IMG/VR virus record: IMGVR_UViG_2693429733_000010
Coordinates: 1 to 4,357 of that record
Strand: one strand, 5' to 3'
DNA from: a virus
Lineage: Duplodnaviria > Heunggongvirae > Uroviricota > Caudoviricetes
DNA: 4,357 bases
Below, piece by piece: positions 608-3,735 of the stretch. Position 1 is the stretch's first letter. Each line of letters opens with the position of its first letter. A program made the position numbers and the translations under genes. The notes below the pieces were generated by a model. It was not told the DNA's origin and made no database searches. It was given only the letters and a program-made list of their open reading frames with translations.

Positions 608-776
608 TATCGCGCCCTCAACAATGAGTTTTGTGATGCGGTGCCTGGTGCTTCCAGGTGACGTTAACCAGTTAACAATTAACGCCGGATACAGAGAATC
701 CACCCATAACACTGTTTTCGGTTTTAACTGTTCCGCGTGCGCTCAGCCGCATTCACCACATCACAAAATTCACTTT

Positions 777-834
777 AAAAAGGGCGGCAGAGCAGTCACG
801 GAGTAAAACTGATACCGCCAAACGTCACCAGAAA
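777..834 (-). ncRNA. dicF: DicF small regulatory RNA with 3' hairpin and U-tract
   Basis: Minus-strand sequence 834->777 reads TTTCTGGTGACGTTTGGCGGTATCAGTTTTACTCCGTGACTGCTCTGCCGCCCTTTTT. This matches the E. coli DicF sequence as I recall it, including the GGCGG...CCGCC terminal stem and T5 tail. Exact ends depend on processing. Confidence 0.85.
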
Positions 835-856
835 ATTGATAACAGAGGGCGTTGCA

Positions 857-1135
857 GCGGGGTTGTCACTTAAGCGTATGGTCAACCTGACAACCCGGTG
901 TCCTCAACGGGGAAGGAATAACCCCGCCATACTTACCGCCGCGCCATTTCGCGGATTGCCACAACCGGAAGCGCACGGTCGACGAAAATTTAACGACAGA
1001 CCATTTATGAACTAACAGCCTCGCCGTGCGCTTTCGCGTTATGCCCTGACTTTTCAGGGACATATCCTTTCAGTAAACTGTCAGTGCCGGATGCTCACCC
1101 GTGTCCGGCGCACGCACTCCACCTCACCCGTGGAG
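857..1135 (-). other. GC-rich, hairpin-dense untranslated region upstream of DicF on the operon strand (candidate processing or regulatory leader)
   Basis: Six inverted repeats are readable directly: GGGTTGTCA 860-868 / TGACAACCC 888-896; CGGGG 908-912 / CCCCG 922-926; CCGCG 939-943 / CGCGG 950-954; CCCTGA 1044-1049 / TCAGGG 1054-1059; GCCGGA 1086-1091 / TCCGGC 1104-1109; CTCCAC 1117-1122 / GTGGAG 1130-1135. No ORF with a credible RBS on either strand. Strand is assigned from the operon context. Confidence 0.4.
1094..1132. repeat. direct repeat of the 10-mer CTCACCCGTG (1094-1103 and 1123-1132), each inside a hairpin loop/stem
   Basis: Exact 10/10 identity, 29 bp apart, lying 36 and 65 bp upstream of the ATG of the plus-strand ORF at 1168. 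Confidence 0.5.
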
Positions 1136-1167
1136 AACTCCTTAATTACCAACCCTCAGGAGGGTGA

Positions 1168-1401
1168 ATGTTAAAATCAACTCTTATTGCTAAATGCCTT
1201 TATCAAAATCGCATGGTAAGCAGCATTTCAATAGGCGAGTCTGCAGTTAAAAGTATTTTCGAAGAGTACTTTCCCGGGCATGATTTTAATAAATGGAATA
1301 CCAAATTACCGCCAGCAGTTTCAACGCGTATTCTGAAAGCAACTGAAAGAGCAAGTACAATTCGCGTTAACTATTTCATTAAAGATTTGTGGGATCTTTG
1401 A
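1168..1401 (+). CDS. hypothetical protein (77 aa), plus-strand gene in low-GC cassette
   Basis: Track ORF. Strong SD AGGAGGG at 1157-1163 with 4 nt spacer to ATG 1168. AT-rich coding sequence. Convergent with the 135-aa ORF and overlapping it by 23 bp at the 3' ends. No recognisable family. Confidence 0.45.
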   Translation: MLKSTLIAKCLYQNRMVSSISIGESAVKSIFEEYFPGHDFNKWNTKLPPAVSTRILKATERASTIRVNYFIKDLWDL

Positions 1402-1786
1402 TATCCACAGAGCCTAAAGTATGTGCATATGGATGTGCTATTGTGCGCCCTCGCAGATTTGCATCATTTTCTAAATTCACTGAACGAAACAGGGCATCAA
1501 CAAGGCTCTGTACAATGCAAAGGCAATCGAAGACTGTCGCTGTTTCTGTTTTGATTGATGAAAGAACATGGCCATTCACGCAAACAGAAATTACCCGTTC
1601 ATTAACATCGCTTTCCTGCTTTTGATTATCAGAACCATATAGCCCAGAAAAAGCATTGCGCACATTACGAACCATATTATCGATGGTTTCTTTTTTGGTG
1701 TATGCCGGGTCAATTTTCACCAGACTATCACCGAGAGTCGTTGCAGCAATTGTCTGGATTTCTTTTGGTAAATCTTTAAATTCCAT
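1379..1786 (-). CDS. hypothetical protein (135 aa) in the leftward operon, low-GC
   Basis: Track ORF. ATG at 1786..1784 with GAGG 6 nt upstream. Lies 22 nt downstream of the stop of the 72-aa gene, so operon context holds. No TM segment or recognisable motif. AT-rich relative to flanks. Confidence 0.6.
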   Translation of the reverse strand: MEFKDLPKEIQTIAATTLGDSLVKIDPAYTKKETIDNMVRNVRNAFSGLYGSDNQKQESDVNERVISVCVNGHVLSSIKTETATVFDCLCIVQSLVDALFRSVNLENDANLRGRTIAHPYAHTLGSVDIKDPTNL

Positions 1787-1808
1787 TATTAGCCTCGTTG
1801 GTTAACCA

Positions 1809-2619: not shown

Positions 2620-2910
2620 TTAACTGTTTTTGCCTGGATACTGTCTTCGAGAATGCACAATATTTACTACTTCTATGCTTGATGCTGTTACTCGGTAAAG
2701 GATGATGTAGTTAGGATGAGTTACAATTTCACGAAGACCAAGAACTCGCTCGCTTGGAGGATACAGGTAAGGATGCTCTGTGAGCGGCAAAACGGATGTT
2801 TCAATTCGAATTTTCATTCTGCGTGCTGCCGCGGGATTTTCTTTAGCTATGTAGGCTACGATCTGGCGCAAATCATCACGAGCAGATGGTAGCCATAAAA
2901 CGGGTAACAT
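2620..2910 (-). CDS. parE: type II toxin, ParE/RelE family (96 aa), parE2-like
   Basis: Track ORF. ATG overlaps the antitoxin stop by 1 nt (minus strand TAATG at 2912..2908). Product is basic, about 11 kDa, consistent with the RelE/ParE fold. Lies downstream of a small acidic antitoxin-like gene. Confidence 0.85.
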   Translation of the reverse strand: MLPVLWLPSARDDLRQIVAYIAKENPAAARRMKIRIETSVLPLTEHPYLYPPSERVLGLREIVTHPNYIILYRVTASSIEVVNIVHSRRQYPGKNS

Positions 2911-3104
2911 TATTCACCTCTGTGAGTTGCAGCAGCAATTTGGGCAATAATTTGTTCCATTTCCGCCATTACCTCATCATGCGGAATCGCCGGGCGGGGA
3001 TCCGCGAGGCTTGCTGCTACTTTGGCCCGCAGCCATTCGTTGTAACTATTTTCTTGCTCAACTGTCTCAAATTCTGAAACCATTGGGGAAAGGACTGTAC
3101 TCAT
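2910..3104 (-). CDS. type II antitoxin (64 aa), PaaA2-like
   Basis: Track ORF. ATG at 3104 with SD GAGGAG about 9 nt upstream, only 19 nt after the repressor stop. Small acidic protein MSTVLSPMVSEFETVEQENSYNEWLRAKVAASLADPRPAIPHDEVMAEMEQIIAQIAAATHRGE. Matches the PaaA2 antitoxin size of the O157:H7 paaR2-paaA2-parE2 system from memory. Confidence 0.75.
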   Translation of the reverse strand: MSTVLSPMVSEFETVEQENSYNEWLRAKVAASLADPRPAIPHDEVMAEMEQIIAQIAAATHRGE

Positions 3105-3123: not shown

Positions 3124-3624
3124 TTAGGCGCGACGGCCTTTTTGTGCAGCTAACCACCGCGCAACCGTACGATCCATTGATTCTTTTTTATCTTTCATCT
3201 CCTGAAGCATGTGTTCTTGATCTTCTTTCGGAAAAGCTCTGAACGTATGGATTAAATCTCGTTCCATCGGCTCTACGGCAAACGGTAGTTCATCCTCTGT
3301 TTGTTCTGTGTCTGCTGGTAATGCGACTATGTTATCTTGCTGTGGTTCTCGACAATACATCCTTGCAATTTGCAGCAAATCTACCATGTCTGGCCTGATT
3401 GACTCAGGGGGAACTTTCAGTAAGCCAGCAAACTTTAGAACAGCCTCAAGGTTTAGTGGGGTTTGACCATTTAGGTAGTGACTTACCGCCCCTTGTGTTG
3501 AAAACCCCATAATTTCCGCCGCACGTTCCTGAGTCAATCCCAACTGAGATTTCTTTGCCATCCAGATTTCTTTCAGTCTTCTGGCGGCGTTGAGGTCGGT
3601 GTCTGACAATGATTTTCTTTTCAT
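3124..3624 (-). CDS. cI-like HTH (XRE-family) prophage repressor, 166 aa; PaaR2/RacR-like, no S24 peptidase domain
   Basis: Track ORF 3124..3654 begins at a GTG; the first ATG is at 3624..3622 (MKRKSLSDTDL...). HTH motif LTQERAAEIMGFSTQGAVSHYLNGQ. The C-terminal ~100 aa is acidic and lacks the GDSM-type serine motif of LexA/cI peptidases. Divergent from a cro-like gene across palindromic operators. Confidence 0.85.
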   Translation of the reverse strand: MKRKSLSDTDLNAARRLKEIWMAKKSQLGLTQERAAEIMGFSTQGAVSHYLNGQTPLNLEAVLKFAGLLKVPPESIRPDMVDLLQIARMYCREPQQDNIVALPADTEQTEDELPFAVEPMERDLIHTFRAFPKEDQEHMLQEMKDKKESMDRTVARWLAAQKGRRA

Positions 3625-3657
3625 ACATCCAATTCTAATAAGATTGCTAATCACTTT

Positions 3658-3686
3658 GAAATAGCATCGCTATTTACTTTTAAAAA
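3658..3686 (-). promoter_or_regulatory. PRM-like maintenance promoter candidate: TG-extended -10 TATTTC (3663..3658), weak -35 TTTTTA (3686..3681)
   Basis: Minus strand reads gaTGcTATTTC, embedded in the OR1 palindrome, the same motif as the pL -10. The weak -35 fits an activator-dependent PRM. Leader about 27 nt to ATG 3624. Confidence 0.35.
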
Positions 3687-3700
3687 TAACAGTGCTATTA
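3659..3700. promoter_or_regulatory. OR-like operator pair: 17-bp palindromes, centres 25 bp apart
   Basis: 3659-3675 AAATAGCATCGCTATTT is a perfect 17-bp palindrome. 3684-3700 AAATAACAGTGCTATTA matches it at 13/17. Same spacing and core as the OL pair. Confidence 0.7.
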
Positions 3701-3701
3701 A
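3673..3701 (+). promoter_or_regulatory. PR-like rightward promoter candidate: -35 TTTACT (3673-3678), 17-nt spacer, -10 TATTAA (3696-3701)
   Basis: Hexamers overlap OR1 and OR2 respectively, a mirror image of the pL/OL layout. Predicted start near 3708, upstream of the cro-like ATG at 3736. Confidence 0.4.
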
Positions 3702-3735
3702 TTATGCATTGGTAACACATCACATAGGGCGGATT

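Follow-up and report, generated by a model that had tools for sequence, protein, structure and literature searches.

A covarying pseudoknotted RNA domain in the untranslated spacer upstream of DicF in a Qin-type prophage operon

We analyzed an untranslated island (positions 840-1160) in a 4,357-nt stretch of viral DNA (IMG/VR record IMGVR_UViG_2693429733_000010, Caudoviricetes), which we call the window. On the minus strand, the island directly precedes the gene for the small RNA (sRNA) DicF. We show that two parts of it, a long interrupted hairpin and a pseudoknotted domain, are evolutionarily conserved RNA structures of the operon strand. The island is very probably the DicF precursor spacer, in which cleavage of the long hairpin by RNase III releases a 190-nt RNA with a folded 5′ domain, and RNase E cuts the linker behind this domain. 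The precursor role, which a first-pass annotation of this DNA had proposed, is correct but already known for Escherichia coli K-12, and it adds nothing new. The domain, in comparison, looks like a new RNA family embedded in the known precursor.

Aligning the island with K-12, a comparison that the first-pass annotation had suggested, we find that it is the orthologue of the ydfC-dicF spacer of the Qin prophage. Window positions 780-1154 share 96% identity with this spacer in K-12-derived strains. The island occupies the same strand and the same position before DicF and dicB, immediately 5′ of DicF, and it has the same long hairpin, linker and DicF. DicF itself lies outside the island and adjoins its 3′ side on the operon strand. 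A match to the query 780-1420 was found in 4328 of 5426 complete E. coli genomes. The window differs from K-12 by a two-gene insertion after ydfC, comprising a 77-amino acid (aa) open reading frame (ORF) and a 135-aa ORF, which separates ydfC from the spacer. The K-12 homology breaks off at ~1154/1155, 13 nt short of the 77-aa ORF. This insertion is carried by 649 genomes and is absent from K-12; the strain that matches the window exactly has the gene order ydfA-like, ydfB, ydfC, the two extra genes, the spacer and dicB. In MG1655, nothing is annotated between ydfC (end, 1649041) and dicF (start, 1649382).

Transcription of the K-12 spacer, together with an RNase III-dependent 190-nt DicF and an RNase E-dependent 53-nt DicF, was reportedly described by Faubladier et al. 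in 1990. The K-12 operon transcript extends from dicBp via ydfABC to dicF, reverse-transcription PCR was reported across ydfA-dicF, and an internal promoter is absent (Ragunathan et al. 2023, PMC10448788). RNase III generates the 5′ end of the 190-nt DicF species, which accumulates stably in stationary phase, and the 53-nt DicF requires RNase E (PMC10448788). The K-12 papers that we consulted report the cleavage sites and the RNA sizes, and not a pseudoknotted fold or its occurrence outside DicF loci (PMC10448788). The orthology and this published processing together support the claim that the island is a structured DicF precursor cut by RNase III and also by RNase E.

The island has a G+C content of 0.53-0.56, compared to 0.37-0.49 in its flanks. 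We find perfect inverted repeats of 9 bp (860-868/888-896), 10 bp (969-978/1024-1033) and 8 bp (857-864/920-927), and 6-bp perfect stems at 876/927, 1044/1054, 1086/1104 and 1117/1130. Using 300 dinucleotide shuffles of 840-1160 to set the chance level, we observed three stems of at least 8 bp against 0.22 expected (none of the 300 shuffles reached three), and two stems of at least 9 bp against 0.06 expected (none of the 300 as high). The 5-6 bp stems showed no clear enrichment over the shuffles (P ~0.06-0.09). Folding both strands of 782-1160 as single sequences, a check that the first-pass annotation had proposed, we obtained z = -3.1 for the minus and -3.5 for the plus strand, so each strand beats its shuffles. 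The hairpin-dense, GC-rich character described in that annotation is thus confirmed, with its repeats located where it had placed them. Its 9-bp stem at 860-896 precedes the DicF 5′ end by 26 nt, in agreement with the ~25 nt that it had given. Conservation and covariation of stems, which it had named as a check, are found in two places, the long hairpin at 966-1036 and the domain at 851-965.

The core of the long hairpin is the 10-bp perfect repeat 969-978/1024-1033. It has a conserved A-C mismatch (1034/968) near the stem base, a bulged A at 979 and a variable apical part. Among 39 distinct homologues, 87.7% of the cells are paired, and in four pairs both partners change. Covariation scores 0.096 compared to 0.061 in shuffles (0/500 as high) and at most 0.040 with slid partners. 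Compensated stems are evident in two related loci (L210 and L212), where CUACGCAG/CUGCGAUAG replaces CGGCGAAG/UUCGACCG, and in a Salmonella locus (L006) with GCACACUCC/GGAGUGCGU. The hairpin is therefore a conserved duplex of about two helical turns, as in an RNase III substrate. We placed the RNase III cut at 967-971 from the length of the 190-nt species. Starting at the DicF 3′ end (782), 190 nt lead to 971, or to ~967 with the U tail, both inside the 3′ arm, and we infer that the cut falls within the hairpin. In the apical part, the unpaired GUCGUUAAAUUU at 996-985 is almost invariant, and the sequence that faces it varies freely. Two loci (L023 and L067) have lost the RNase III hairpin by a deletion between two AACGCGAAA repeats.

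RNase E prefers to cut at R-N/W-U-U, the slash marking the cut. The DicF 5′ end, set at 833 by the Rfam alignment and the MG1655 annotation, lies in AUCAAU/UUUCUGG, agreeing with this preference. When the whole spacer is folded, the minimum-free-energy structure has a 13-bp G-U-rich long-range helix that joins the 5′ end of the island (1145-1157, minus strand) to 830-842, a stretch across the RNase E site.

Between the two cuts lies the pseudoknotted domain, whose helices P0 to P3 are given in Table 1. Our covariance model of the domain, R1, scores the window copy at 169 bits. Performing pattern scans of viral contigs, we found the domain in more than 200 loci. One pair of the pseudoknot is variable, and in 214 pattern-matching copies, it was U-A in 120, C-G in 72 and U-G in 22, with no other combination. 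Two scans aimed at deviant bases of this pair were exhaustive, and beside the usual U-A, they yielded only C-G and U-G. A divergent locus found later (L227) has a C-U mismatch there. The stems themselves occur in many versions, at least eight for P2, at least 12 for P3 and at least nine for P0, those of P3 and P0 coming from an anchored, model-free analysis.

Divergent members were obtained by scans that barred the common closing pair of P3, first in viral contigs and then in metagenomes, followed by R1 searches, in which they score 33-63 bits. In these members, all helices differ in sequence, and the junctions and the loop are nearly invariant. The near-invariant core consists of GG(Y)AAG(Y)AUGGC, C(R)CC and the 19-nt P3 loop. 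In 31 diverse copies, 94.3% of the cells are paired compared to 73.5% in shuffles, and both sides change in 24 of the 33 pairs. The covariation score reached 0.469 against 0.135 in shuffles (0/500 as high) and at most 0.104 with slid partners. Most E. coli copies have two conserved G-U pairs in P0, which would be A-C mismatches in a plus-strand RNA; thus, the fold belongs to the RNA of the operon (minus) strand.

Two further pairings of the domain were set aside. The 8-bp repeat 857-864/920-927 as an alternative helix has, by eye, no counterpart in phage P1, and P2 and P3, which covary, compete with it. An H-type pseudoknot between the P2 loop (UCCU) and a downstream AGGA was seen, again by eye, in only some classes. 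Searching Rfam with 834-1165 at E-values up to 10 gave no match, so the island is not itself a member of the DicF family (RF00039). Scanning the whole window, as well as related and divergent loci, against Rfam revealed no family for the island or the domain, and full-text searches, within the searchable literature, found no description of the fold or the domain.

Table 1. Features of the window (position 1 is its first letter; operon-strand RNA elements first, neighboring genes and sites below)
Feature	Position	Strand	Remarks
Pseudoknotted domain	851-965	minus	Four helices, ~115 nt; helices found by eye, then by model
P0	965-958 with 858-851	minus	
P1	954-950 with 943-939	minus	
P2	926-922 with 912-908	minus	
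P3	896-888 with 868-860	minus	The 9-bp stem of the first-pass annotation
P3 loop	887-869	minus	19 nt, near-invariant; GGUUGACCAUACGCUUAAG
Pseudoknot	932-927 with 881-876	minus	6 bp; GUAUGG with CCAUAC in the P3 loop
Long interrupted hairpin, putative RNase III substrate	966-1036	minus	Arms 1036-1019 and 984-966; 17-18 bp
Putative RNase III cut, 5′ end of 190-nt pre-DicF	967-971	minus	Placed by length only
A/U-rich single-stranded linker	834-850	minus	17 nt; GCCCUCUGUUAUCAAU; RNase E cut between 834 and 833
DicF sRNA with its own intrinsic terminator	782-833	minus	Rfam RF00039, 76.7 bits, E = 2.5e-16 (gathering score 48)
Hairpin Ha	1117-1135	minus	CUCCAC/GUGGAG stem (perfect 6-bp inverted repeat), GGGUGAG loop; one copy of the 10-mer; in the minimum-free-energy fold
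Hairpin Hb	1086-1109	minus	GCCGGA/UCCGGC stem, loop CACGGGUGAGCA; other copy of the 10-mer; in the minimum-free-energy fold
Hairpin Hc	1044-1059	minus	CCCUGA-AAAG-UCAGGG; in the minimum-free-energy fold
DicB	419-607	minus	
77-aa ORF	1168-1401	plus	phrog_10348 (E = 1e-47); Shine-Dalgarno AGGAGG
135-aa gene	1379-1786	minus	phrog_1363
DUF1391 YdfA-like gene, ydfB, ydfC	1809-2423	minus	
PaaA2-type antitoxin and ParE toxin pair	2620-3104	minus	Between repressor gene and early-left promoter region
Helix-turn-helix (HTH) repressor gene	3124-3654	minus	
Operator-like repeats	2524-2571 and 3659-3706		AAATAGCATCGCTATT and related forms; on either side of the repressor and toxin-antitoxin genes

We also checked where else the parts of the spacer occur. 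In a BLAST search of phages with the island, only the DicF-proximal part (~843-965) recurs elsewhere. The carriers of the domain include cdtI, Stx2c phages, 2H10, pPE4 (recorded as an Actinobacillus phage), P1, P7 and divergent metagenomic phages; a BLAST search with two divergent members against named phages gave no match. In the Qin-type loci of E. coli, the domain and DicF come with both the RNase III hairpin and the distal hairpins. In P1, P7, cdtI and pPE4, different terminators come after the domain, and the Rfam DicF model fails to match them. All 12 of the enterobacterial sequence classes have a hairpin resembling an intrinsic terminator, with a T-run, 60-105 nt past the P3 loop. Several divergent members have no downstream terminator, and some sit 15-70 nt ahead of a start codon. 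In members with readable flanking genes, the domain is intergenic and co-oriented with its neighbors. The neighboring genes are unrelated, being recT-like, replication, Rad52-like, HNH, Gp37/Gp68-like and small terminase genes, as identified from their translations.

Phage P1 offers the closest look at such a copy. Its annotated 'dicF-like region' (NC_005856, 68791-68892, downstream of the ban promoters) contains P3 and the invariant loop, and we find the full domain at 68723-68844, followed by an intrinsic terminator. The pseudoknot, which in P1 joins GCAUGG to CCAUGC, and P3 show compensatory changes of their pairs relative to E. coli. The P1 copy differs from that of E. coli in several ways: the Rfam DicF model does not match it, the terminator and the tail differ, and it lacks an RNase III hairpin and a clear P0. 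It lies ~35-45 nt from a promoter, whereas the E. coli copy lies deep inside an operon.

Other observations concern single members. In a divergent group of five loci (L222, L235, L231, L227 and L228), an XRE-type HTH gene flanks the domain on one side and a small-terminase-like gene on the other, and a hairpin, AGCGCUUUGAAAAAGAGCGCU, stands directly 5′ of P0, recalling the RNase III hairpin of E. coli. A divergent copy (L229) is directly followed by an abiF RNA motif (RF03085, 61.3 bits) at 1721-1757 of its locus. In phage pPE4 (L014), the segment with the P0 3′ strand, linker and terminator is duplicated in tandem (1600-1780).

For the E. coli-type spacer, we propose the following course of events. 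The minus-strand stretch 834-1154 would form a long untranslated spacer of the dicBF operon, running from the ydfC-side genes to dicF within a polycistronic mRNA. It would consist of three parts: distal simple hairpins (1044-1135), poorly conserved in detail; the hairpin at 966-1036, which RNase III would cut in its 3′ arm to give the 190-nt pre-DicF with a 5′ monophosphate; and the domain at 851-965, which would start 2-6 nt past this cut. RNase E would cut the 17-nt A/U-rich linker to release the 53-nt DicF, whose own terminator would give the 3′ end. The folded domain may make the 190-nt form a discrete and stable intermediate, in that it would confine RNase E to the linker and hinder its 5′-end-dependent access. 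The G-rich, tightly folded spacer may moreover shield more than 300 nt of untranslated RNA from Rho.

Several points weigh against this picture. The role of the domain in DicF processing is one that we infer. The cleavage coordinates are carried over from K-12 by length, with an uncertainty of ~5 nt. The alignments used for counting pairs were fitted to the model structure, which inflates the percentage paired; stem diversity is unaffected, as the anchored analysis without the model gives the same stem set. The minimum-free-energy fold of the isolated 190-nt RNA lacks P0-P2, and thermodynamics alone thus fails to select the fold that covariation supports. Salmonella has the long hairpin and DicF, and the domain is absent. 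Conversely, P1, P7, cdtI and pPE4 carry the domain but lack the long hairpin or a canonical DicF. These arrangements indicate that DicF does not need the domain and that the domain is not specific to DicF.

Because the domain also occurs without DicF and is conserved independently, it very probably serves a separate function. Tentatively, and at somewhat below an even chance, we see in it an undescribed, widespread class of phage RNA with a four-helix junction, a 6-bp pseudoknot and the loop GGUUGACCAU(R)CGC(Y)U(R)AG, with its own function and with DicF as just one of several 3′ tails. If so, it might, for example, render RNA polymerase resistant to terminators, block ribonucleases, or bind a protein or a ligand.

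An effect on RNA polymerase would make the domain a cis-acting processive antiterminator like put of phage HK022; folding on the nascent transcript, it would modify RNA polymerase to give partial read-through of the DicF terminator and of later ones. We consider this unlikely. Similarly, we give a low chance to the further proposal that read-through reaches dicB and the recombination genes, substituting for the N protein that these prophages lack. The terminators in all 12 enterobacterial classes would suit such a function. In P1 and P7, the domain starts ~35-45 nt past the Pban promoter, with a terminator and a long operon downstream, and in cdtI and pPE4, it belongs to the early-left operon leader that follows the repressor gene. 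The co-oriented, intergenic placement, the lack of an N-like gene or boxA in the window, and the near-invariant loop and junction nucleotides, which suggest recognition by a macromolecule, point the same way. Like the domain, putL and putR are structured phage RNAs in early operons ahead of terminators in N-less phages, so a functional analogy is possible. However, the domain resembles put in neither sequence nor structure. The put RNAs have ~70 nt and two stem-loops with no pseudoknot (PMC9378689), as opposed to ~115 nt, four helices and a pseudoknot. Searching HK022 24000-31000 with R1 and the filters off, we obtained at best 11 bits over 40 nt, which is not credible, and membership in the put RNAs was rejected. 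Moreover, the domain in the window is ~1.5 kb from the promoter, and the divergent members that lack a terminator speak against the proposal. A lambda-type nut site was also discarded, as 834-1160 has no boxA (CGCUCUUA-like), such matches are at chance level elsewhere, and the window has no N-like gene. Hairpin Hc (CCCUGAAAAGUCAGGG) recalls boxB only superficially.

The domain could instead be the functional body of a trans-acting non-coding RNA, namely the 190-nt long DicF in E. coli and the ~190-nt Pban-to-terminator transcript in P1, a proposal that we find doubtful. Such an RNA would serve as a decoy or bind a protein of the host or the phage, and its variable 3′ tail would supply different base-pairing seeds; these details are doubtful to a like extent. 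The domain plus terminator is indeed about equally long in E. coli (190 nt, from RNase III site to terminator) and in P1 (from promoter to terminator), and the 190-nt form is stable in stationary phase (PMC10448788). Tails and terminators differ between classes with the domain conserved, and the downstream genes are unrelated across members. However, all known activities of DicF lie within its 53-nt part (PMC5069750, PMC9438474), and the domain has no known partner. Those divergent members that stand 15-70 nt before a start codon with no terminator are also difficult to reconcile with a free RNA.

It is improbable that the domain is a ligand-sensing riboswitch aptamer with the DicF-type terminator as its expression platform. 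Its core is aptamer-like, with variable helices, near-invariant junctions and loop, and a pseudoknot; a terminator is closely downstream in the enterobacterial group; and the minimum-free-energy fold of the isolated 190-nt RNA pairs GCGGCGG of the domain with the 3′ arm of the terminator. This pairing is not conserved, however. By eye, P1 has no such complementarity, and in one locus (L038) the terminator stem has changed to GGUGG/CCACC with the domain keeping GGCGG. We therefore rejected it as an antiterminator pairing. The downstream genes share no function (replication, recombination, HNH, Gp37/Gp68-like, small terminase, dicB/kil), and several members have no terminator. A riboswitch would be expected to have target genes of one functional class and a conserved, mutually exclusive pairing with its expression platform; here the genes downstream are unrelated, and the pairing is absent in P1 and uncompensated in L038.

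A coding role is very improbable. The candidate is a 65-aa ORF on the minus strand (866-1063) that matches phrog_8854 (E = 3e-29), and some phage records annotate a hypothetical protein at this position. Pfam gave no match for it. In K-12, its start codon is ATT and a stop lies in frame 61 nt upstream of the GCGG anchor (window 935). From the same anchor, the frame has six open codons in cdtI, and 17 without a start codon in P1. Single-nucleotide indels are common in P2, inside the ORF, and the substitutions compensate RNA pairing and are not codon-like. With its frame broken or startless in K-12, cdtI and P1, phrog_8854 was rejected as a protein-coding gene; the family probably consists of ORFs over-called on a conserved RNA. 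The first-pass statement that the island has no credible coding frame holds, since this ORF is not conserved in homologues.

Its alternative suggestion, that the repeats are plus-strand regulator sites or an RNA leader for the 77-aa ORF, fails, and a role as promoter, operator or leader of this ORF is highly unlikely: it begins 13 nt past the island behind a good Shine-Dalgarno sequence and, as a member of a recurrent phage family, needs a promoter somewhere, but it and its neighbor are inserted relative to K-12 and thousands of genomes keep the island without it, so the island is not its leader or operator, while 700-1167 has no sigma-70-like promoter on the plus strand and the conserved G-U pairs of P0 form only in minus-strand RNA. 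Within the insert (window 1155-1800), the 77-aa and 135-aa ORFs are convergent and overlap by 23 nt.

For the distal third of the spacer (1044-1135), made up of three simple hairpins, we see no sign of a specific role other than to keep the spacer folded. The first-pass annotation had stressed an exact direct repeat of a 10-mer here. The repeat, CTCACCCGTG, is present at 1094-1103 and 1123-1132, but its weight as a site did not hold. An exact 10-mer repeat arises in 6% of the dinucleotide shuffles, which is marginal. The second copy matches 9/10 in K-12, and both copies are present in just 15 of 108 distinct homologous upstream sequences. It reflects CAC plus GGGUGAG common to the loops of two hairpins, Ha and Hb, and these loops are variable among homologues. 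That of Ha is GGGUGAG, GGGUCAG or others, with no covariation seen in the hairpin, and that of Hb is CACGGAUAAGAA or CACGGGUGAACA in many homologues. In one locus (L016), the stretch between the two 10-mers is deleted. The repeat was therefore rejected as a functional site because it is not conserved. Hairpin Hc is reduced to ~4 bp (UCAGAC) in K-12, and CUCUGA/UCAGAG in two loci (L023 and L016) amounts to a single compensatory change, which supports it weakly. Reading the minus strand, we noticed a strong Shine-Dalgarno-like UAAGGAG (1138-1144) 10 nt ahead of a 10-codon GUG...UGA mini-ORF (1095-1127), which passes through Ha and Hb.

The setting of the spacer is clear from its neighbors. OL and OR of the prophage are presumably marked by the operator-like repeats (2524-2571 and 3659-3706), which place the early-left promoter upstream on the minus strand. 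Taking the minus-strand gene set, these repeats and DicF together, the window comes from a Qin-type lambdoid prophage and represents its immunity region and early-left operon, with minus as the operon strand. The dicF-dicB spacer (630-770, minus strand) has a sub-threshold match to STnc100, a Salmonella sRNA family (36.5 bits; gathering score 47). Similar STnc100 matches precede kil in pPE4, and P1 and P7 have them near tciA/terB. This stretch looks like a further conserved RNA module of these operons.

Processing of this kind has parallels. In phage lambda, the early-left transcript has RNase III sites (the N leader and sib), where RNase III cuts a long imperfect hairpin of a lambdoid early-left transcript. 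These sites control the translation of N or the decay of int mRNA, and do not release an sRNA. MicL, CpxQ and SroC, sRNAs that come from 3′ UTRs or from inside operons and whose processing neighboring stem-loops guide, resemble DicF: RNase E frees an sRNA from a longer mRNA beside a structure, and an intrinsic terminator gives the 3′ end (PMC9438474). The DicF locus differs from them in an added RNase III step and in the large, conserved pseudoknotted domain between the two cuts.

In summary, a strongly covarying, pseudoknotted domain with no Rfam family lies beside an sRNA that is among the oldest known, in the bacterium that has been studied best. As it is common to P1 and P7, to lambdoid Stx and cdt phages and to distant metagenomic phages, it is a mobile RNA module of phage early operons. 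If the domain controls read-through or RNA stability, it would explain how N-less prophages express dicB/kil and the recombination genes past the DicF terminator, and it would account for the stable 190-nt form of DicF.

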